From Thermoanaerobaculia bacterium (GTDB lineage Bacteria > Acidobacteriota > Thermoanaerobaculia > UBA5066), in assembly GCA_035542215.1 (NCBI GenBank), contig DATKLW010000033.1, positions 15,651 through 79,650 on the forward strand: 64,000 bases of DNA, written 5' to 3'. Shown here piece by piece: positions 13,509 through 25,440 of this stretch; within the stretch, counting starts at the first letter, position 1; each line of letters begins with the position of its first letter. The translations under genes were made by a program, and so were the position numbers. Below the pieces are notes generated by a model that worked only from the letters and a program-made list of their open reading frames with translations, did no database searches and was not told the origin of the DNA.

Positions 13509-13588
13509 TCGCCACCATCCCGCTCGCCCTTCTCGCCGTTCTGACGCTCCTTGCGCTGGCCCATCAGAGCCGGGTCCGTCCGTCCTGA
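13505..13588 (+). CDS. 27-aa hydrophobic single-TM micropeptide
   Basis: Strong SD GGGAGGGAGG 8 nt upstream of ATG; MIATIPLALLAVLTLLALAHQSRVRPS. Sits immediately 5' of the Fe-S subunit gene. Confidence 0.4.
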   Translation: MIATIPLALLAVLTLLALAHQSRVRPS

Positions 13589-13601
13589 GGAGAAGAACGC
13601 A

Positions 13602-14510
13602 ATGACTCTCAACCGCCGCAACCTGTTCAGGATCGCCGGCGCTGCGGGCGCGGCCACGGTCGCGGGCCGTGCGCTTTCGTCGGCGATGACACCGGGCGCC
13701 CCAAAGACCACCGCCAATGCGGTCCTGGTGGACACGACGCGCTGCGTCGGCTGTCGCGCCTGCGAGGCCGCCTGCTCCGAGGCAAACCAGCTCGCCGAGC
13801 CCGAGAAGCCCGGCGACGCCGCCGTGTTCGCGTCGCGCCGCCGGACGGGCCCCACGAGCTTCACGGTCGTGAACAAGTCGACCGAGAAGAGCCCGAATGG
13901 AGAGGACCGCTACGCGAAGATGCAGTGCATGCACTGCGTGTCGCCCGCGTGCGCGTCCGGCTGCGTCGTCGGAGCGCTCGAGAAGACGCCGGCGGGCCCG
14001 GTCGTCTACCACGCGGGCCAGTGCATCGGCTGCCGGTACTGCATGATCGCGTGCCCGTTCTCGGTCCCGAAATACGAATACGCGAAGGCCGCCCCGCTCG
14101 TGAAGAAGTGCACCTTCTGCGCCGAGCGCCAGGGCCAGGGCCTTCCGCCCGCGTGCACGGAGGCCTGCCCTTCGGGCGCGCTCCTGTTCGGCAAGCGGGC
14201 CGACCTCCTCGAGGAAGCGAGGACCCGCATCTACCAGAACCCGACGCGGTACACGCACGAGATCTACGGCGAGGACGAAGCCGGGGGAACGAGCTGGCTC
14301 TACCTCTCGGACGTCCCGTTCACGAGCCTCGCCCTCCCCGGCGAAATCGAGAAGAGGTCGTACCCGGAGCTCGCGGAAGGCGCGCTCTCGGCGGTCCCCC
14401 TCGTCGCGACCCTGTGGCCGCCCCTCCTCATGGGCCTCTACACCTTCAGCAAGCGGCGCCACGACGTCGCGGAAGAAGGAAACGGGCGCAAAGGAGACGG
14501 TCATGAGTAA
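13602..14510 (+). CDS. Tat-exported 4Fe-4S ferredoxin-type electron-transfer subunit (HybA/NrfC/DsrO-like) with C-terminal TM anchor
   Basis: Twin-arginine signal MTLNRRNLFRIAGAAGAATVAG. Four Cys clusters CVGCRACEAAC, CMHCVSPACASGC, CIGCRYCMIACP and CTFCAERQ...CTEACP. C-terminal hydrophobic helix; RBS GAGGAGAAG. Confidence 0.85.
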   Translation: MTLNRRNLFRIAGAAGAATVAGRALSSAMTPGAPKTTANAVLVDTTRCVGCRACEAACSEANQLAEPEKPGDAAVFASRRRTGPTSFTVVNKSTEKSPNGEDRYAKMQCMHCVSPACASGCVVGALEKTPAGPVVYHAGQCIGCRYCMIACPFSVPKYEYAKAAPLVKKCTFCAERQGQGLPPACTEACPSGALLFGKRADLLEEARTRIYQNPTRYTHEIYGEDEAGGTSWLYLSDVPFTSLALPGEIEKRSYPELAEGALSAVPLVATLWPPLLMGLYTFSKRRHDVAEEGNGRKGDGHE

Positions 14511-15747
14511 CGTGATGAGCGACGGCCTGAACCGCCCGGTCCCCTTCCCCGCGTTCGTTCTGGACAAGATCTGCCTCGGAATGCCCGCGAAGACCTACGC
14601 GAAGAGCCTCCTGACGAAGACGAACGCGATCTACGCCGCCATCCTCGCGATCGGCCTCCCCACTCTCGCCTACCGCTACTGGAAGGGAATGGGCGCCGTG
14701 AGCAACCTCTCCCAGACGAACCCGTGGGGCATCTGGGTCGGCATCAACATCATCTGCGGCATCGCGCTCGCGGCCGGCGGCTACACGGTGGCCGCGACCG
14801 TCTACGTCTTCGGCCTCGAGCAGTACCGGCCGATCCTGAGGCCCGCGATCCTGACGGGGTTCCTCGGCTACGTCTGCGCGATCAGCGGCCTCATCGTCGA
14901 GCTCGGCCAGCCGTGGCGGCTTCCCTACCAGCTCTTCCTGACGCCGGGCACGACCGCCGTCATGTTCGAAGTCGGCATGTGCGCGTTCGCCTACCTGATC
15001 GTCCTCGGTCTCGAGATGCTTCCCGCGGGACTCGAGTGGCTCGGACTCGCCCGCGCCCGCCGCATCATGGGAACGCTCACGATCGGGATCGTCGTCCTCG
15101 GCATCACGCTCTCGACGCTCCACCAGGCCTCGCTCGGCGCCTTCTTCCTCATGGTGCCGGGCAAGCTCCACCCGCTCTGGTACTCGCCGTATCTCCACGT
15201 CTTCTTCTTCATCTCCTCGATCTCCGCGGGAATCGGGATGATCATCTTCGAGAGCACGGTCTCGCGCCGCGCGTTCCGCGACGAGCTCGACCCCGAGGCG
15301 CCCGTCGACCTCGACGCGCTGCAGCTCGGCCTCGCCAAGGGCGGCGCGGTCGTCCTCTTCGCGACCTTCTTCATCCGCCTCCAGGGCCTCGTCGTCTCCG
15401 GGCGGTGGGACCTCCTGTTCACGGGCTGGGGCGCCTGGTTCGCGCTCGAGCTCGTCGGCTTCATCCTCTTGCCGTCGCTCCTCTTCGCGTTCGCCGTCCG
15501 CACGCAGAGCGTCACGCTCACGCGCGCGGCCGCCGTCATGGCGGTTCTCGGCGTCGTCCTGAACCGCATCAACGTGTCCCTCATCGCCTACAACTGGAAC
15601 GTCCCCGCCTCGGACCGGTACGTCCCGTCGATGGGCGAGATCGTCCTCACGATCCTGCTCCTCACGTGCGGCGTTCTCGCCTTCCGCTGGATCGTCAACC
15701 GCATGCCCGTCCTTCGCGAGCATCCGGATTGGCGCGGCAGCCACTGA
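14503..15747 (+). CDS. NrfD/PsrC/HybB/DsrP-family polytopic membrane quinone-interacting subunit
   Basis: 414 aa, ~10 TM helices, NrfD-family sequence character. Start overlaps the Fe-S gene stop (ATGAGTAA). Confidence 0.85.
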   Translation: MSNVMSDGLNRPVPFPAFVLDKICLGMPAKTYAKSLLTKTNAIYAAILAIGLPTLAYRYWKGMGAVSNLSQTNPWGIWVGINIICGIALAAGGYTVAATVYVFGLEQYRPILRPAILTGFLGYVCAISGLIVELGQPWRLPYQLFLTPGTTAVMFEVGMCAFAYLIVLGLEMLPAGLEWLGLARARRIMGTLTIGIVVLGITLSTLHQASLGAFFLMVPGKLHPLWYSPYLHVFFFISSISAGIGMIIFESTVSRRAFRDELDPEAPVDLDALQLGLAKGGAVVLFATFFIRLQGLVVSGRWDLLFTGWGAWFALELVGFILLPSLLFAFAVRTQSVTLTRAAAVMAVLGVVLNRINVSLIAYNWNVPASDRYVPSMGEIVLTILLLTCGVLAFRWIVNRMPVLREHPDWRGSH

Positions 15748-15763
15748 GAAGAAAGAGAAGAAC

Positions 15764-16429
15764 ATGCACGCGAACGACCTCCTCAGCCCGCACGCAACCA
15801 AGGCCATCGAGTACGTGCTCGCGGTCTCGTATCTCCTGCTCTTCATCCCCTTCTGGCGCTTCGTGAACGGCGCCACCGCCGCGGAGTCCCTCGCGTTCTC
15901 GTGGTTCCAGGTCCCGGCGAACGTCCACCTGCACCGCGGCCACTCCTGGGCGAAGACGTTCGGGGGCGCGGTGGCGGTCGGTCTCGACGACTTCGCGCAC
16001 AAGATGATCGGCCCGCTCGATTCCGTCCAGTTCCCCGCGGTCGGCTCCGCCCTCCGGCAGGGGCAGAAGGCCTTCTCGGTCGTCGCGGACGGCAAGTCCT
16101 TCGACGTCCTCTCACCGGTCGACGGCAACGTCGTCGCGCTGAACGAATTCGTCCGCGCCCATCCGTCCGACGCGGTCCGCGACCCTTACGGCACGGGCTG
16201 GCTTCTCAAGGTCGAGCCCCGCTGGCTCACGGCAAACCTCAAGAACCTCGTCTCCGGCGACGGGGCCCGCCGCTTCCTCGACGCGGCCGCCCAGGTGCTC
16301 GCCGGCCGCATGAGCCCCGAGCTCGGCATCGTCCTCCAGGATGGCGGCACGCCGGTTCACGGAATCGCCCGCGAGATCGACCCCGCGAACTGGGACTCTC
16401 TGGTCCGGACGTCTCTCAAGGGCGAGTGA
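15764..16429 (+). CDS. Membrane-anchored glycine-cleavage H-protein-like (lipoyl-carrier fold) protein, lipoyl-Lys position conserved
   Basis: N-terminal TM helix. Soluble domain aligns with E. coli GcvH: HSW (HEW), AVGLDDFA (VGITEHA), ADGKSFDVLSPVDGNVVALN ([21 protein letters not shown]; K aligned) and DPYGTGWLLKVEP (EPYAGGWIFKIK). Confidence 0.7.
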   Translation: MHANDLLSPHATKAIEYVLAVSYLLLFIPFWRFVNGATAAESLAFSWFQVPANVHLHRGHSWAKTFGGAVAVGLDDFAHKMIGPLDSVQFPAVGSALRQGQKAFSVVADGKSFDVLSPVDGNVVALNEFVRAHPSDAVRDPYGTGWLLKVEPRWLTANLKNLVSGDGARRFLDAAAQVLAGRMSPELGIVLQDGGTPVHGIAREIDPANWDSLVRTSLKGE

Positions 16430-16439
16430 GGAGTCCGCG

Positions 16440-16790
16440 ATGAACACACGCCTCCGCTTCCTCGCGGCGACTTTCCTCCTCTCCCTTTCCGCGACGCTGC
16501 TCGCGGGGGCGCTCCCGAACCTCCCGAAGGACATCGCGTTCCCCCAGGGCGACGGCAGCCCGGGAGTCGTGATCTTCCGGCACGAAGATCACATCGATGC
16601 CTCGCAGCCGGACTGCACGATCTGCCACCCGAAACTCTTCTCCATCGTCAAACGCACCGCCTCTTCGGCCGCCCCCGCCGCGATCCGCCACGCCGAGATG
16701 GAAAAGGGCAAGAGCTGTGGCTCCTGCCACGACGGCAAGACCGCTCACGGGCTCTGGGACGACTGCGGAACGTGCCACAAGGCAAGGTGA
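16440..16790 (+). CDS. Trihaem c-type cytochrome, cytochrome c7 (PpcA)-like
   Basis: Signal peptide plus three CXXCH (CTICH, CGSCH, CGTCH). FRHEDHIDASQPDCTICH parallels PpcA FPHKAHQKAVPDCKKCH. Confidence 0.8.
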   Translation: MNTRLRFLAATFLLSLSATLLAGALPNLPKDIAFPQGDGSPGVVIFRHEDHIDASQPDCTICHPKLFSIVKRTASSAAPAAIRHAEMEKGKSCGSCHDGKTAHGLWDDCGTCHKAR

Positions 16791-16798
16791 GGTGACCC

Positions 16799-17497
16799 AT
16801 GACGCCTCTCGAATTCCTCCAGCTCGCCGGCATCTTCCTCGCGGGCCTCGTCGTACGGCTCCTCGCGTTCCTGCTCGTGCTCGCGGTCTGCACGCTGCCG
16901 ATCATCGCCGTCTGGGCGTTGTGGACCGCGTGGCAGAAGCTCCGTGACCGGCGCATCGGCCTCGTCGACCTCGCCGGGCTCGAGCTCGCCGAGGCGCACC
17001 ATTACGCGCCGGGCCACACGTGGCTCGCGCGCAAGGGCCGCGGCACCGTCCGCGTCGGACTCGACGAGATCGCGGGGCGGCTCCTCCACGCGCCCACGAG
17101 CGTCTCGCTCCCGCGGCCGGGAACCGTCCTCGCCGCCGGCCTCCCCGCCGCGACCGTGAACTGCGGCGGCCGCTCGGCCTCGATCACGGCTCCGGTGTCG
17201 GGCACCGTCGTCGCGATCAACCAGGCGGTCCAGCGCGATCCCTCGATCCTCGAGGACTCGCGCTACCGGAACGGCTGGCTCTTCTCGATGAAGCCCGCGA
17301 CGGCCTCGTTCCTCACGCTTCCGACGGGACCCGCCGCGCGCGCGTGGTTCCGGGACGAGACGGCGCGCTTCTCGCACGCGCTCGAGACCGAGCTCGGCCT
17401 CCTCGCTGCCGACGGCGGAGAGCTCGTCGTCGAGGCGCCCGCTCTCCTCTCCGAGGAGAAGTGGCAGCACCTCGTCGGGGAGTTCCTGAAGGGCTGA
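16799..17497 (+). CDS. Membrane-anchored GcvH-like protein (two N-terminal TM helices), lipoyl-Lys replaced by Gly
   Basis: GHTWLARKGRGTVRVGLDEIAG and DSRYRNGWLFSMKP match the GcvH fold. The position of the lipoyl-Lys aligns to NCGGRSASITAPVSG, with no Lys. Confidence 0.65.
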   Translation: MTPLEFLQLAGIFLAGLVVRLLAFLLVLAVCTLPIIAVWALWTAWQKLRDRRIGLVDLAGLELAEAHHYAPGHTWLARKGRGTVRVGLDEIAGRLLHAPTSVSLPRPGTVLAAGLPAATVNCGGRSASITAPVSGTVVAINQAVQRDPSILEDSRYRNGWLFSMKPATASFLTLPTGPAARAWFRDETARFSHALETELGLLAADGGELVVEAPALLSEEKWQHLVGEFLKG

Positions 17498-19312: not shown

Positions 19313-19385
19313 CGCCCGCGCCGAGGAGCGGCCCCGAGCACGGCCCGGGGCCCGCGCTTGACGGACGGGGTAATCTCTTCGACTC

Positions 19386-19466
19386 GTGAACGCGCCCAAC
19401 ACCTTCGCCCTTTTCGCCGTTGCCGGGTATTTCTATACGCCGGCGAGGAGGGGCGCCGCCACGTAG
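19386..19466 (+). CDS. Candidate aromatic-amino-acid attenuator leader peptide (26 aa, GTG start)
   Basis: VNAPNTFALFAVAGYFYTPARRGAAT*: 3 Phe and 2 Tyr including a consecutive Y-F-Y run. Immediately upstream of a strong terminator and of the PDT-DAHPS-CM gene. Confidence 0.35.
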   Translation: MNAPNTFALFAVAGYFYTPARRGAAT

Positions 19467-19490
19467 GCGACACCAACCCCGGGTGACTCC

Positions 19491-19535
19491 CGAGGCCCCC
19501 CTCCGAGACGACGGAGGGGGGCCTTTTTCTTTTCG
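19491..19535 (+). terminator. Rho-independent terminator/attenuator upstream of pheA-aro fusion gene
   Basis: GGCCCCCCTCCG-AGACGAC-GGAGGGGGGCC followed by TTTTTCTTTTC. The leader segment GAGGAGGGG (19445-19453) is complementary to CCCCTCC in the 5' arm, a possible antiterminator. Confidence 0.55.
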
Positions 19536-19553
19536 CTTCGAAGGAGGCTTCCC

Positions 19554-21440
19554 ATGGACGGATCGAACACCGGCGGCCCAACCGACGTCCCGACGCCGCG
19601 CGCCGGCTACCAGGGCGAGCCGGGCTCGTTTTCCGCGCGCGCGGCCGCGCGCGCCGGCCGGCCGCTCGCGTACGCGACGTTCGACCGCCTCCTCCGCGCG
19701 CTCCTCGCGGGCGACGTGGACGTCGCGGTCCTCCCCGCCGCGACGCACGGCGCGGGGCCCGTCGTCGAGCCGCTCGAAGCGCTCGCCCGCGCCCTCGAGG
19801 CCGGCGGAGTTCCGCTCGAAGTGCGCGACGAGATCGCGATCCCCGTCCGCCTCGTCCTCGCGGCGCCCTCCGGCGTCGCCGAGGAGAGCGTGAGGGAAAT
19901 CCACTCGCAGCCGCCGGTGCTCCGTCAATGCGCGCGCCTTCTCGCGCGGCGCGACGCCGTGCCCGTCGAGACGCACGACACGGCATTCGCCGCCCGGCGC
20001 GTCGCCGAGCTCGGCGGCGCGCGTGCGGCCGTCTGTTCGGAGGAGGCCGCGCTGGAGGCCGGCCTCGTCGTTCTCGAAGAGGACGTGTCCGACGTGAAAC
20101 CGAACGCGACGCGCTTCTGGACCGTCGCGCGCCGCTCGGACGCCGAACCGACCGTCCGGGCGCTCTTCTTCTCGGGGGCACGTCTCGCCGCGGCCCTCCA
20201 CGACGCCGGCGCGGAGATCCTCATGCTCGCCGGGCGGCCTGGCGCGGCCGTCGGCGGGTTCGCAACCGTCGCCGCCGCCTCGCTCGCGAAGGCCGCGGGA
20301 CTCGTGGCGACGTCGGGCGAGACGCTCGTCTGGCTCGGCCCGGCGCCCGACCACGTTCCTCCGCCGCGCCTCAGGGACGCCCCGAGGGCGACGGAAGTCC
20401 GCGCGGCCACGGTCGTCACGGCCGGCGCGTTCGCGGTCGGGGGCGGGAAGCGCGCGGTCATCGCGGGCCCGTGCGCGGTCGAATCGCCCGAGCAGGTGAT
20501 GCGCCTTGCGAAAGCGGTCGCGCGCGCCGGCGCCACCGCGCTCCGGGGAGGAGTCTTCAAGCCGCGGACGTCGCCGTCCGCGTTCCAGGGGCACGGCCTC
20601 GAGGCGCTCCGCTGGCTGAAGGACGCGGGCGACGCGGTGGGCCTGCCGATCGTCACGGAGGTCATGGCCCCCGCGCAGGTGGAGCCGGTTGCGCGCCTCG
20701 CGGACGTTCTCCAGATCGGCGCGCGCAACTGCCAGAACTACGACCTCCTGAAGGAGGCCGGCGCCGCCGGTCGCCCCGTGATGCTCAAGCGCGGCTTCGG
20801 GACGACAGTCGAGGAATGGCTCAGCGCGGCCGAGTACATTCTCGCCGCGGGCTGCGAGGGCGTCCTCCTCTGCGAGCGCGGCATCCGGACGTTCGAGCGT
20901 TCGACGCGCGGCACGCTCGACCTCGGCGGCCTTCTCGCGGCGCGGTCCCTCACGCACCTGCCGCTCCTCGCGGACCCGTCGCACGCCGCGGGCCGCAAGG
21001 AGCTCGTCCCCGGCCTCGCGCGCGCCGCGTGGGGCGCGGGCGTCGACGGACTCATGATCGAGGTCCACGACGCGCCCGAGTCCGCGCTGTGCGACGGGCC
21101 CCAGGCGCTGCTGCCCGAAGACCTCGAAATGCTCCTCGACGAGTTCGGGCTCCTGCCGGGGCGCACGGGCTCCGTCGAACGCGTGCGGCGCGCGATCGAC
21201 GCCGTGGACTCTTCGATCGCGGCCCTCGCGGCCCGAAGGCTCGAGCTCTGCCGCCGCGTCGCGGAGGTCAAGAAGGCCACGGGCCGCCCCGTCCGGGACG
21301 AGGCCCGGGAAGCCACCGTGCGCGCGCGCTTCGCCGAGAGCCTCGGGAAGGACGCGACGAAAGCGTCCGGCCTCGCGGACGCGCTCATCGCGCTCGGACT
21401 CGAGGCCGAGGGCTGGGAGGGGGACGCTACTCGCCGATGA
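19554..21440 (+). CDS. Trifunctional fusion: prephenate dehydratase (N) - DAHP synthase type I-beta (middle) - AroQ chorismate mutase (C)
   Basis: N-terminal [11 protein letters not shown] and TRF motif (PDT). Middle [15 protein letters not shown]...[11 protein letters not shown]...[14 protein letters not shown] (KDSA-like DAHPS). C-terminal [30 protein letters not shown] (AroQ CM). RBS GAAGGAGG. Confidence 0.85.
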
Positions 21441-21842
21441 TCTTGATGAGGATCCTCTTCGGTCGGCGTCCGTCCCACTCGCCGTAGAAGATCCGCTCCC
21501 ACGTCCCGAAGTCGAGGCGGCCGTTCGTGATCGCGACGACCGCCTCGCGGCCCATGAGCTGTCTCTTGACGTGCGCGTCCGCGTTGTCCTCACCCGTGTC
21601 GTTGTGCCGCCACTGCTTCACGGGTTCGTGCGGGACGAGGGCCTCGAAGAAGCGCTCGTAGTCCGCGTGGAGGCCCCGCTCGTCGTCGTTCACGAAGACG
21701 GACGCCGTGATGTGCATCGGGTTCACGAGGCAGAGGCCTTCCTTGACGCCGCTCTCCTTCACGGCGGCCTCGACCTCGGGCGTGATGTTCACGAAGCCGA
21801 TGCGGGCCGGGACGTTCAGCGTGAGGACCTTTCGGTGGGATT

Positions 21843-21846
<4 letters not shown>
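21427..21846 (-). CDS. YjbQ/UPF0047 family protein (secondary thiamine-phosphate synthase-like)
   Basis: 139 aa; [18 protein letters not shown]...[18 protein letters not shown]...[10 protein letters not shown] is characteristic. Confidence 0.85.
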
Positions 21847-24005
<2,159 letters not shown>

Positions 24006-24040
24006 GGTGGAGAGATCTTACGCGGCTACACTCCCCGGCC

Positions 24041-24862
24041 GTGACGACACCCGCCGCCGCTTCCCCCGTCCTCGCCGTTCTGGACGTCGGGTTTCACCGC
24101 CATCCGGACCTCACGGCAAGGCGGGTCCTCGCCTGCGTGGACGCCACCTCTCGCCGCGTCGTCCCGTTCCGGTACGGGGCGAGGGGGACGGAGGCCGAGC
24201 ACGGCACGCGCACGATGCTCCTCGCGGCCGGGAGCGGCCGGGCGAGCGGACTCGTTTCCCCGGCGCCTCGCGCGAAGGTCGTGCTCGTGAAGGTCGGCGA
24301 AGGCGGGCGTGTCCCGCGCGCGGCGATCGTGCGCGCGTACCGCTGGCTCGCGACCCACGGGCCGGCCCTCGGCGTCCGTGTCGCGCTCTGTCCGTTCGGA
24401 GACGACGCCGAGGTCCGCGGGGAGAGGAGCGAGGTGACGGGCCTGGTCGCCGAGCTCGCCGCGCACGGCATCCTCGTCGTCGCGGCGGCGGGCTGGGACC
24501 GCGCGAACGAGGTGGTCTCCCCGGCGCGCGCGAGGGACGCGATCGCCGTCGGCGGCTGGGACGTCGCGGAGAGCCGTCCCGCGCGGGGACCCCGCGTCGG
24601 CGATGTCGGGGGCGTCCTGAAGCCGGACCTCCTCGCCCCGTCGGTCCCGCTGGAGGTGCCGTGTCTCCGCGGCAGCCGGATGCACGAACGGGCAGGCGGG
24701 ACGTCCTTCGCGGCCTCCCTCGTGGCCGGGGCCGCCCTCAGGATCCTCGAGAAGGAGCCGGGGCTCGCGAAGGACGGCGTCCTCGCCCGGCTCACGAGCC
24801 TCGCGCGCCCCGTCCCGGGCCAGCCCCCGCTCCTCCCTCTCCGGGCGCTCCGGCGCGGCTGA
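24041..24862 (+). CDS. Subtilisin-like (S8) serine peptidase, short form
   Basis: Asp (AVLDVG), His (HGTR) and Ser (GTSFAAS) triad in subtilase order; 273 aa. Confidence 0.55.
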   Translation: MTTPAAASPVLAVLDVGFHRHPDLTARRVLACVDATSRRVVPFRYGARGTEAEHGTRTMLLAAGSGRASGLVSPAPRAKVVLVKVGEGGRVPRAAIVRAYRWLATHGPALGVRVALCPFGDDAEVRGERSEVTGLVAELAAHGILVVAAAGWDRANEVVSPARARDAIAVGGWDVAESRPARGPRVGDVGGVLKPDLLAPSVPLEVPCLRGSRMHERAGGTSFAASLVAGAALRILEKEPGLAKDGVLARLTSLARPVPGQPPLLPLRALRRG

Positions 24863-24875
24863 CCCCCCCGGATTT

Positions 24876-24895
24876 CAGGAATTTCGAGGTTCCTG
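24876..24895 (+). promoter_or_regulatory. Palindrome CAGGAA-N8-TTCCTG upstream of fur-family gene (possible autoregulatory operator)
   Basis: Perfect 6-bp inverted arms 65 bp upstream of the Fur-family start. Unlike the AT-rich canonical Fur box. Confidence 0.2.
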
Positions 24896-24960
24896 CGTCT
24901 GGACTCAGATGCAACTGCACCATTCCAATCGCGCGCCGGGGAGGGCATCGTCTCTCCACC

Positions 24961-25440
24961 ATGAGCGGAAACACCGACGAACGCCGCGTTTTCGACGAGT
25001 TCCTGAAGCGCAAGGGCCTGAAGGTCACGCGCGAGAGAACGGCCGTCTTCGATGAGATCTTCTCGACGCACCGGCATTTCGATGCCGACGACCTCGTGAG
25101 CCGCATGCGCGAGCGCGGCACGAAGATCAGCCGGGCGACGATCTACCGCACGCTCGAGCTGCTCTACGGCTGCGGCCTCGTGGGGCGCGTCCGCCTGAAC
25201 GAGGAGAAGTACCGCTACGAGCGGCTCCGCAAGGGCGAGCACCACGACCACCTCGTCTGCACGAACTGCGGCAAGGTCGTCGAATTCATCGACGGCGCCA
25301 TCGAGAAGCGCCAGGACGCGGTCTGCAAGGAGCACGACTTCGTCGCGACCTCGCACTCGCACCAGATCTGGGGGCTCTGCGGGGCCTGCCGGAAGGTCGC
25401 GCTGAAGGCTCCGGGCCGGGCCACCGTCACCGCCGCTTAA
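24961..25440 (+). CDS. Fur-family metalloregulator (Fur/Zur/PerR type)
   Basis: DNA-binding helix ISRATIYRTLELL; metal site HHDHLVCTNCGKV...C..C. Confidence 0.85.
   Translation: MSGNTDERRVFDEFLKRKGLKVTRERTAVFDEIFSTHRHFDADDLVSRMRERGTKISRATIYRTLELLYGCGLVGRVRLNEEKYRYERLRKGEHHDHLVCTNCGKVVEFIDGAIEKRQDAVCKEHDFVATSHSHQIWGLCGACRKVALKAPGRATVTAA

Follow-up and report, generated by a model that had tools for sequence, protein, structure and literature searches.

This locus raises the question of whether one polypeptide can join the entry step of aromatic amino acid synthesis to the phenylalanine branch and, if so, how such a protein would work and be controlled. The DNA analysed is a 64,000-nt stretch of contig DATKLW010000033.1 from a Thermoanaerobaculia bacterium (the whole stretch is called the window), and the gene in question lies at window 19554–21440 on the + strand. 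It starts with ATG at 19554, its stop codon ends at 21440 and it is read in one uninterrupted frame, with an AGGAGG Shine-Dalgarno sequence 7 nt 5′ of the start; residue numbers refer to the 628-aa product. Three Pfam domains, all above their gathering cutoffs, were found in this product in the order PDT (prephenate dehydratase), DAHP_synth_1 (DAHP synthase or 3-deoxy-7-phosphoheptulonate synthase, DAHPS, also written DAH7PS) and CM_2 (chorismate mutase, CM). Read from its sequence, the open reading frame (ORF) is thus one polypeptide with modules of all three enzymes. With a probability of roughly 0.6, we infer that it is a trifunctional enzyme in which prephenate feeds back on DAHPS through the CM domain, while control by the end products is exerted by transcription attenuation upstream of the gene. 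The gene was divided as follows.

19540..19547, + strand: Shine-Dalgarno sequence GAAGGAGG of the three-enzyme gene (read from the sequence)
19554..21440, + strand: three-enzyme gene, PDT, ACT-like, DAHPS (I-beta) and CM (AroQ) in this order, 628 aa (ORF and hidden Markov model (HMM) calls)
19596..20141, + strand: PDT catalytic domain, residues 15–196 (PF00800, PDB matches, Thr-Arg-Phe (TRF) motif)
20157..20336, + strand: ACT-like beta-alpha-beta-beta-alpha-beta domain, residues 202–261, degenerate in sequence (AlphaFold2 model, Foldseek)
20337..20399, + strand: Pro/Arg-rich linker, residues 262–282 (family alignment, low predicted local distance difference test score, pLDDT)
20400..21146, + strand: type I-beta DAHPS, N-terminal beta-hairpin and TIM barrel, residues 283–531 (TIGR01361)
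21165..21419, + strand: AroQ CM, residues 538–622 (CM_2, PDB matches, AlphaFold2 helices)

A single chain with the order PDT, DAHPS (I-beta), CM had been proposed in an earlier note made from the letters of the sequence, and ORF, Pfam and TIGR01361 agree with it; the HMM scan of domain boundaries suggested there called every one of the three domains, and the motifs it named are present (N184-x-T186-R187-F188 in PDT; R545-x-x-I548-D549, R562 and K573 in CM). For the DAHPS region, matches were obtained with Pfam PF00793 (DAHP_synth_1; residues 292–526, 252.1 bits against a cutoff of 25.5, E 6e-75), NCBIfam TIGR01361 (DAHP_synth_Bsub, type I-beta; 350.7 against a cutoff of 267.75) and NCBIfam NF006421 (374.4 against 335), and a search of PDB sequences returned the I-beta enzymes 1vs1, 1zco and 1rzm (E 1e-72 to 1e-88). 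C307, H477, E503 and D514 were invariant in 24 family members, as was the phosphate-binding motif K336-P337-R338-T339-S340; the first four residues fall in an ungapped alignment on C102, H272, E298 and D309 of the Thermotoga maritima enzyme, which we take to be its metal ligands. The CM region was matched by Pfam PF01817 (CM_2; residues 544–597, 48.5 bits against 27, E 1e-12) over profile positions 1–54 of 80 only. In the PDB sequence search the C-terminus matched the AroQ mutases 1ybz, 5mpv and 1ecm, and AlphaFold2 modelled it as a complete three-helix AroQ protomer (helices 541–576, 583–597 and 601–618). Invariant CM residues were R545, R562, K573, R581, D582, R585, E586 and E619; all but the last are spaced identically to, and correspond to, R11, R28, K39, R47-D48 and R51-E52 of the Escherichia coli enzyme (EcCM). 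By the periodicity of helix 3, E619 was placed at the position of EcCM Gln88. Lys39 is essential in EcCM (PMC10520331).

The joining of the modules was then considered against the possibility of an assembly or frameshift artefact, the earlier note having allowed for a frameshift or stop that separates adjacent genes. At 90% identity, over 110 clusters from ENA, JGI, NCBI and Logan assemblies contained the same unbroken three-domain protein (620–667 aa, 64–95% identical to that of the window), which for practical purposes settles that doubt and at the same time answers the note's suggestion to look for this architecture in other genomes. Some of the contigs are 0.3–1.7 Mb long. Named members are labelled as Thermoanaerobaculia or Acidobacteriota metagenome-assembled genomes (MAGs) and are annotated just as ‘3-deoxy-7-phosphoheptulonate synthase’. 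Codons of the window gene were compared with those of the closest species-level genome (L002, an uncultured Acidobacteriota MAG, 94% identity; dS about 0.33, unsaturated), and the ratio of nonsynonymous to synonymous substitution rates (dN/dS) was 0.07 for PDT, 0.16 for the ACT-like segment, 0.07 for the linker, 0.08 for DAHPS and 0.02 for CM. Purifying selection on every part, together with the recurrence across assemblies, indicates that the fusion is no artefact, and the three catalytic modules look intact and are under selection. The linker is itself conserved, with G262, P265, P271-R272, P277 and T280 invariant or nearly so in the family alignment. An artefactual joining of pheA to aroA-aroQ could draw on gene order elsewhere, since several other phyla have an unfused gene for CM-PDT directly upstream of a DAHPS gene (L019, L023, L039, L049, L063) and a Bacteroides operon runs pheA > hisHb > aroA(I-beta)-aroQ > tyrA (PMC1173090); this adjacency also offers a plausible way in which the fusion could have evolved. 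However, the frame is uninterrupted in many independent assemblies, on contigs of up to 1.7 Mb, its linker is under purifying selection and the split case that was examined (L001) is a frameshift inside the same gene, so that we regard the probability of an artefact as close to negligible. Short DAHPS-CM relatives were also considered as a separate two-domain lineage, and this was rejected: in L001, the one examined, the PDT part lies just upstream in another frame, and the split is a frameshift in that assembly. A partial PDT-DAHPS sequence that is 70% identical to the N-terminus of the window protein (P0121) bears the NCBI label ‘Acidithiobacillales bacterium’; the label probably stems from faulty binning or taxonomy and not from a true occurrence outside Acidobacteriota.

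The N-terminal module was assigned with Pfam PF00800 (PDT; residues 18–194, 118.1 bits against a gathering cutoff of 25.2, E 5e-34, profile positions 2–179 of 181) and matched the prephenate dehydratases 2qmx and 6vh5 in the PDB sequence search. For comparison of single residues, 38 family members were aligned with 96 canonical or otherwise-fused PDTs. In the family members sampled, the Thr-Arg-Phe motif was retained at 100% (T186), 87% (R187) and 100% (F188). At 44 positions of the catalytic domain, one residue is conserved in 75% or more of the outside PDTs; the family kept it at 39 of these, including N184-x-T186-R187-F188, S118, Q125-C126 and D142-T143-A144, and has systematically changed it at five (S27 to G, E63, the Glu of ‘ENS’, to V or A, H100 to L, H119 to Q and A161 to C). 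Residue 64, the Asn of ‘ENS’, is N, T or D, with N in only 47% of the family. In mutagenesis of the P-protein from E. coli, catalysis reportedly did not depend on the Glu that corresponds to residue 63. The TRF triad of PDT has been reported to be critical for catalysis (PMC13217925). The divergence of PDT relative to DAHPS was 1.84-fold in the family, 1.6–1.9-fold in CM-PDT-DAHPS fusions and 1.9–2.65-fold in DAHPS-PDT fusions, and since this ratio matches that of the other fusion families, the PDT shows no special decay. Decay of the PDT was accordingly rejected as an explanation, its dN/dS being as low as that of DAHPS and its divergence ratio equal to that of fusions with fully canonical PDTs.

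Between PDT and the DAHPS barrel, the earlier note had suspected a degenerate ACT domain, and this was borne out in fold and position, with a sequence that is unrecognizable as ACT. In an AlphaFold2 model of residues 1–290 (pLDDT 87.8) the two-lobed PDT catalytic domain is followed by an ACT-like unit, residues 202–261 being modelled as beta-alpha-beta-beta-alpha-beta with a pLDDT of about 90. Foldseek aligned the PDT+ACT crystal structures 6vh5, 7am0, 2qmx and 3mwb to about 278 columns of the 290-residue model (E about 1e-19, template modelling score 0.65). No match to Pfam ACT was found in the 628-aa protein, nor did the ACT-like module match the FXD profile in the Pfam scan or with hhalign. 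By hhalign, the segment aligned with canonical PDT-ACT at a probability below 1%, which is not significant, and all pairs of the segment with PDT-ACT and DAHPS FXD stayed below 2%, the ACT-versus-FXD control included; because sequence homology is not significant by this method, the assignment rests on fold and position. In an exhaustive profile search, only about a quarter of canonical PDTs aligned into the segment. GALV and ESRP are the regulatory motifs of PDT ACT domains (PMC13217925); here GAL lacks its Leu, and ESRP is changed to (A/P)G-x-P or, in one sub-clade, deleted. Predicted fold and position support the view that the segment after PDT is the PDT's own ACT domain, with its ligand motifs lost.

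Upstream of the gene, a gap of 240 nt contains a leader. Fourteen family loci were examined; eight leaders were aligned and folded, and three more came from L208–L210. The layout listed here for the window (19357–19536) was seen in 11 of the 14 loci, whose proteins are 64–94% identical to that of the window (L002 5802–6000; L004 5760–5967; L005 5785–5994; L084–L087 about 1214–1500; L208–L210 about 990–1200).

19357..19376, + strand: upstream box CTTGAC-N8-TA-N3-T, promoter-like with non-canonical spacing (8-leader alignment)
19386..19466, + strand: 26-codon leader ORF initiated at GTG, (M)NAPNTFALFAVAGYFYTPARRGAAT-stop, with three Phe and two Tyr (equivalents in 11/14 loci)
19423..19443, + strand: small hairpin over the Tyr-Phe-Tyr codons at 19428–19436 (folds in 5/5 leaders examined)
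19445..19453, + strand: G-tract GAGGAGGGG, proposed anti-terminator strand (complementary to the terminator 5′ arm)
19492..19533, + strand: terminator-like hairpin GAGGCCCCCCTCCG-AGACGA-CGGAGGGGGGCCTT, then TTTTTCTTTT (terminator scan, 14 pairs)

The leader ORFs have 22–32 codons with 3–7 Phe, Tyr or Trp codons each, and the leaders of L208–L210 contain the same aromatic-rich short ORF. Aromatic residues make up 38 of 220 (17%) compared with a background of 6.8% (binomial P about 1e-7, approximate since the sequences are related). In spite of indels, the start stays in one alignment column and the stop keeps its position; at 72% GC stops are rare and an open frame alone means little, which makes this conserved frame telling. 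The small hairpin is formed by different stems in different leaders (CCGGCGTAT.., CGGATAC/GTATCCG, GCGGGT/GCCCGC, GGCGGCGT/ACGCCGTC). The G-tract ends 10 nt before the leader stop in the window (8–13 nt in all eight leaders), inside the stretch covered by a ribosome that terminates at the leader stop. Its duplex with the 5′ arm of the terminator was calculated at -19 to -28 kcal/mol, and once the 3′ arm was withheld, this pairing was part of the minimum free energy fold in 8/8 leaders. The terminator hairpin, about 20 nt 5′ of the start codon, folds with -27 to -31 kcal/mol in 8/8 leaders; in L084 one of its pairs is compensatory (TTC/GAA versus TCC/GGA), and compensatory changes were also seen in the small hairpin. 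The terminator motif occurs a single time in the window. In a metagenome scan for the hairpin motif, at least 120 matches had GC contents of 28–79% and, among the matches listed, none adjoins a three-domain gene; the hairpin sequence is thus generic, and the evidence for the leader is the combination of features. A role of the hairpin as terminator of the upstream gene was ruled out, as the upstream gene of L086 is on the opposite strand. Rfam covariance models gave no match to the leader, the best scores being far below gathering (e.g. 27.3 versus 62) and from unrelated families.

By its anatomy the leader is probably a classical leader-peptide attenuator sensing the charging of Phe- and Tyr-tRNA, and such sensing fits a gene product that acts in the shared pathway, at the branch point of Phe and Tyr and in the Phe branch. 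Like E. coli pheL-pheA (Rfam Phe_leader), it has a short ORF enriched in regulatory codons, terminator and anti-terminator pairings that exclude each other, and a Phe-pathway gene immediately downstream; in contrast to that system, it has no sequence or covariance similarity to any Rfam family, its codons are mixed Phe/Tyr(/Trp) without a Phe run, and its host belongs to Acidobacteriota. Across the eight aligned leaders, the upstream box never varies at C1-T2-T3-G4-A5-C6, T15-A16 and T20. The gap between CTTGAC and TA-N3-T, a -10 pattern, is only 7–8 nt, and the box recurs at equivalent positions in 10 other loci; a sigma-70 promoter scan called no canonical promoter there. The box may act as an operator, or as a promoter of unusual type whose transcript would be nearly leaderless. 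No Shine-Dalgarno sequence precedes the leader ORF, which begins some 10 nt 3′ of TA-N3-T and may be leaderless. A further conserved box, GCGACAC, lies between leader stop and terminator (window 19466–19474, GGCGACACC) and is also present in L002, L004, L005, L084 and L210.

Taken as a trifunctional enzyme, the protein would work as follows. The central I-beta DAHPS would condense phosphoenolpyruvate and erythrose-4-phosphate to DAHP at the entry of the pathway, the C-terminal AroQ domain would convert chorismate to prephenate, and the N-terminal PDT would turn prephenate into phenylpyruvate, a step committed to Phe. As in the Prevotella and Porphyromonas enzymes, CM probably doubles as the allosteric site at which prephenate is sensed and the DAHPS barrel throttled; this effector would be removed by the fused PDT, and entry flux through DAHPS would then follow the drain of prephenate into the Phe branch. 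In the Prevotella nigrescens enzyme (PniDAH7PS), DAH7PS is inhibited by prephenate bound to the C-terminal CM (PMC8408635); for PniDAH7PS and PgiDAH7PS-CM (Porphyromonas gingivalis), inhibition by CM-bound prephenate and interdependence of the two domains have been described (PMC8408635, PMC12202928). Both have an I-beta barrel followed by a C-terminal AroQ CM, as here, whereas the window protein has an extra N-terminal PDT and ACT-like module of about 260 residues; the comparison is one of architecture. For residues 283–622, an enzyme of this type is the likeliest model, and on this analogy allosteric coupling of pathway entry to the Phe branch is a reasonable hypothesis. The ACT-like domain, at the very site where I-beta DAHPS enzymes have their regulatory ferredoxin-like domain, is probably now a structural or dimerization module and may pair across subunits. 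End-product control would have moved to transcription, through the leader of Phe and Tyr codons before the terminator: when Phe- or Tyr-tRNA is scarce, the ribosome would stall, leaving the G-tract open to pairing with the terminator's 5′ arm, and read-through would result.

Several observations weigh against the trifunctional, attenuator-controlled enzyme. The PDT scores 118 bits in Pfam compared with 173–192 bits in other fusions, and it remains below the cutoffs of the NCBIfam PDT equivalogs (PRK11899, 94.5 versus 359; PRK11898, 74 versus 219), a shortfall that is due to the divergent catalytic domain and the unrecognizable ACT. Three conserved polar residues of PDT are replaced (Glu63 by V or A, His100 by Leu, and ‘SHPQ’ by ‘SQP’ at 119). 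The CM misses the NCBIfam equivalog-domain cutoffs (best 46.6 versus 66.95), and Glu instead of Gln88 may shift its pH profile. In the full-length AlphaFold2 model (predicted template modelling score 0.51), the geometry between domains carries no confidence. Among the loci, one sub-clade (L001, L082, L083) has no leader, its gene abutting the upstream gene, and the T-tracts are weak in two leaders (L085, L086).

The replaced polar residues, which fall in the canonical PDT cleft and are changed family-wide, and the low PDT scores bear on a different explanation, namely that PDT-ACT is a non-catalytic sensor of a ligand (prephenate, phenylpyruvate or Phe) for DAHPS and that the protein is bifunctional, with DAHPS and CM activity. 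The loss of the ACT ligand motifs would fit such a sensor, as would the place of the ACT-like fold directly before the barrel, where other I-beta enzymes carry the FXD regulatory domain, and a precedent exists in the N-terminal CM of the Bacillus and Geobacillus DAH7PS, which mainly binds the effector (PMC8408635). Yet Thr-Arg-Phe and most PDT hallmark residues are invariant or nearly so, the dN/dS of 0.07 for PDT equals that of the DAHPS domain, and the PDT/DAHPS divergence is that of fusions with fully canonical PDTs; we consider a non-catalytic sensor unlikely. The altered ACT also bears on the substrate. The N-terminal domain might be catalytic and prefer arogenate (an arogenate or cyclohexadienyl dehydratase), in which case Phe would be made by CM, a separate prephenate aminotransferase and this domain, and the changes in the cleft and in ACT would reflect a switch of substrate. 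PDT and arogenate dehydratase share fold and motifs and are indistinguishable by Pfam, and the determinants that separate them have been placed in the ACT domain (PMC13217925), the most altered part here; but no aminotransferase gene adjoins the three-enzyme gene, and fusion with a prephenate-making CM favours direct use of prephenate, which makes an arogenate enzyme improbable. A wider scheme would have both PDT-ACT and CM act as allosteric sensors on the DAHPS barrel in three-way reciprocal control, with ACT turned from a Phe sensor into the gate of the barrel, entry set by prephenate made and consumed at the two ends, and sensing of Phe and Tyr passed to a previously undescribed leader attenuator of Acidobacteriota; this scheme appears rather doubtful to us, and the trifunctional enzyme with feedback through CM is the reading kept below.

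How far the fusion is new was judged by scanning one genome per species and classifying the best 80 loci with HMMs. Fusions of DAHPS with PDT were common and came in three arrangements.

Arrangement A, PDT–ACT-like–DAHPS–CM (family of the window): Thermoanaerobaculia/Acidobacteriota, 5 genomes
Arrangement B, CM–PDT–ACT–DAHPS: Acidobacteriota, Acidimicrobiia, Actinomycetota and Myxococcota, about 17 genomes
Arrangement C, FXD–DAHPS–PDT–ACT: Spirochaetota and a partial match in Desulfosalsimonadaceae (L073), about 14 genomes

The Acidobacteriota with arrangement B (L007–L018, L020, L022, L024, L026 and L040 for the arrangement as a whole) are Vicinamibacterales, Marinacidobacterales and one Thermoanaerobaculia MAG. 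Arrangement C (L021, L025, L027–L029, L033, L043, L045, L046, L051, L055, L057, L062) lacks CM and is apparently common in Spirochaetota MAGs, those of Treponemataceae and Sphaerochaetaceae included. The earlier note had regarded a polypeptide joining all three enzymes as unseen. In that breadth the claim fails, as the three are already joined as CM-PDT-ACT-DAHPS in several phyla and, in Shewanella oneidensis, Song et al. (2005) described aroQ-pheA fused to aroA(I-beta), the DAHPS part being called a pseudogene (PMC1173090); what stands is the order, PDT first and CM last, which among the sampled loci was confined to the Thermoanaerobaculia/Acidobacteriota clade. The joining of the three enzymes is thus not unprecedented, and arrangement A is, by sequence, a distinct and conserved variant. 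The add-ons of DAH7PS studied so far are the ferredoxin-like (FL)/ACT domain, the N-terminal CM and the C-terminal CM only (PMC8408635, PMC12202928), and a domain pair occurring in both orders is known from the fusions of CM with cyclohexadienyl dehydratase (CDT), CM-CDT and CDT-CM (PMC10520331). No paper on the order PDT-DAHPS-CM or on an Acidobacterial aromatic attenuator was found in the literature.

Compared with the E. coli P-protein (PheA, CM-PDT-ACT), the window protein shares CM, PDT, the ACT fold, the TRF motif and the catalytic Arg/Lys/Glu set of CM, but its CM is C-terminal and not N-terminal, a DAHPS barrel lies between ACT and CM, and GALV/ESRP are lost. The CM-PDT-ACT-DAHPS fusions contain the same three enzyme modules, with the ACT fold likewise right before the barrel; they differ in being CM-first and in having a canonical PDT (173–192 bits) with readable ‘RPGAL’ and ‘ESRP’, although only L017 has a Pfam ACT match. 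A ferredoxin/ACT-like module immediately N-terminal to the I-beta barrel is also shared with the FXD-DAHPS-PDT-ACT proteins and with T. maritima FL-DAH7PS. In the former, DAHPS and PDT are fused too, but PDT is C-terminal, CM is absent and FXD is recognizable (PF18152). The nearest outside relative of the window PDT is that of the arrangement B protein L022 from a Thermoanaerobaculia MAG (38% identity). The window DAHPS is about equidistant (56–59%) from arrangement B, arrangement C and stand-alone enzymes. The CM may have moved from the front of an ancestor that began with CM, or may already have followed DAHPS in a DAHPS-CM ancestor; outside CMs score uniformly weakly (18–34 bits) against the family CM HMM.

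Three of the arrangement B loci have additional features. In a Myxococcota MAG (L024 4954–8037, JBHJGZ010000003.1) the order is class-IV aminotransferase-CM-PDT-(ACT)-DAHPS, 1028 aa from stop to stop, a frame that would join a candidate prephenate or aromatic aminotransferase to the three enzymes. The CM-PDT-DAHPS gene of L008 (4358–9792) is followed immediately downstream by a second DAHPS and a CM-containing ORF, and that of L010 (5344–9085) by a second, stand-alone PDT, apparent cases of redundancy within one locus.

DAH7PS is a textbook case of allostery gained by adding modules to a TIM barrel. To the characterized add-ons (ferredoxin/ACT-like domain, N-terminal CM, C-terminal CM) the family of the window adds a whole PDT-ACT while keeping CM at the opposite end, and arrangements A, B and C form a natural series for studying how domain order shapes allosteric wiring. 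Features of arrangement A itself are the ACT domain without ligand motifs and the probable aromatic leader attenuator; an ACT that has kept its fold and lost its motifs, together with a putative transcriptional Phe/Tyr sensor, suggests that feedback control is migrating from protein to RNA. These results would mainly concern work on DAH7PS allostery and on the evolution of pathway regulation; their practical value is modest, given uncultured soil Acidobacteriota as hosts and inferred function.

In the window, the gene is flanked upstream by a Fer4/NrfD/GCV_H cluster, a holin-like membrane protein and a lipoprotein, and downstream by UPF0047/YjbQ, a Ser/Thr kinase, FUR and a photolyase. No aromatic-pathway operon was found among the neighbouring genes and no second copy of PDT, DAHPS or CM within the window. 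The upstream cluster (13551–17497, + strand) comprises a 4Fe-4S dicluster protein, an NrfD-like membrane protein and two tandem glycine-cleavage-H (lipoyl-type) proteins; its order is kept in L001 (461–4234), with a cytochrome c7 between the two GCV_H-domain proteins, and it may be an uncharacterized membrane redox module. On the - strand (21427–24005), the genes of UPF0047/YjbQ (139 aa) and of a 720-aa Ser/Thr kinase that contains TPR repeats are separate and overlap by 4 nt. In L001 (8180–10759, - strand) Pkinase and YjbQ were called as a single 859-aa product, and in nearly all family loci YjbQ is convergent with, and downstream of, the three-domain gene. Further downstream, a 478-aa ORF (24004–25440, + strand) matches FUR at residues 337–452 only, and the FUR proteins of relatives have 156–165 aa (L084, L208, L209); the ORF is probably over-extended, as is typical in DNA of high GC, its true start being far downstream.

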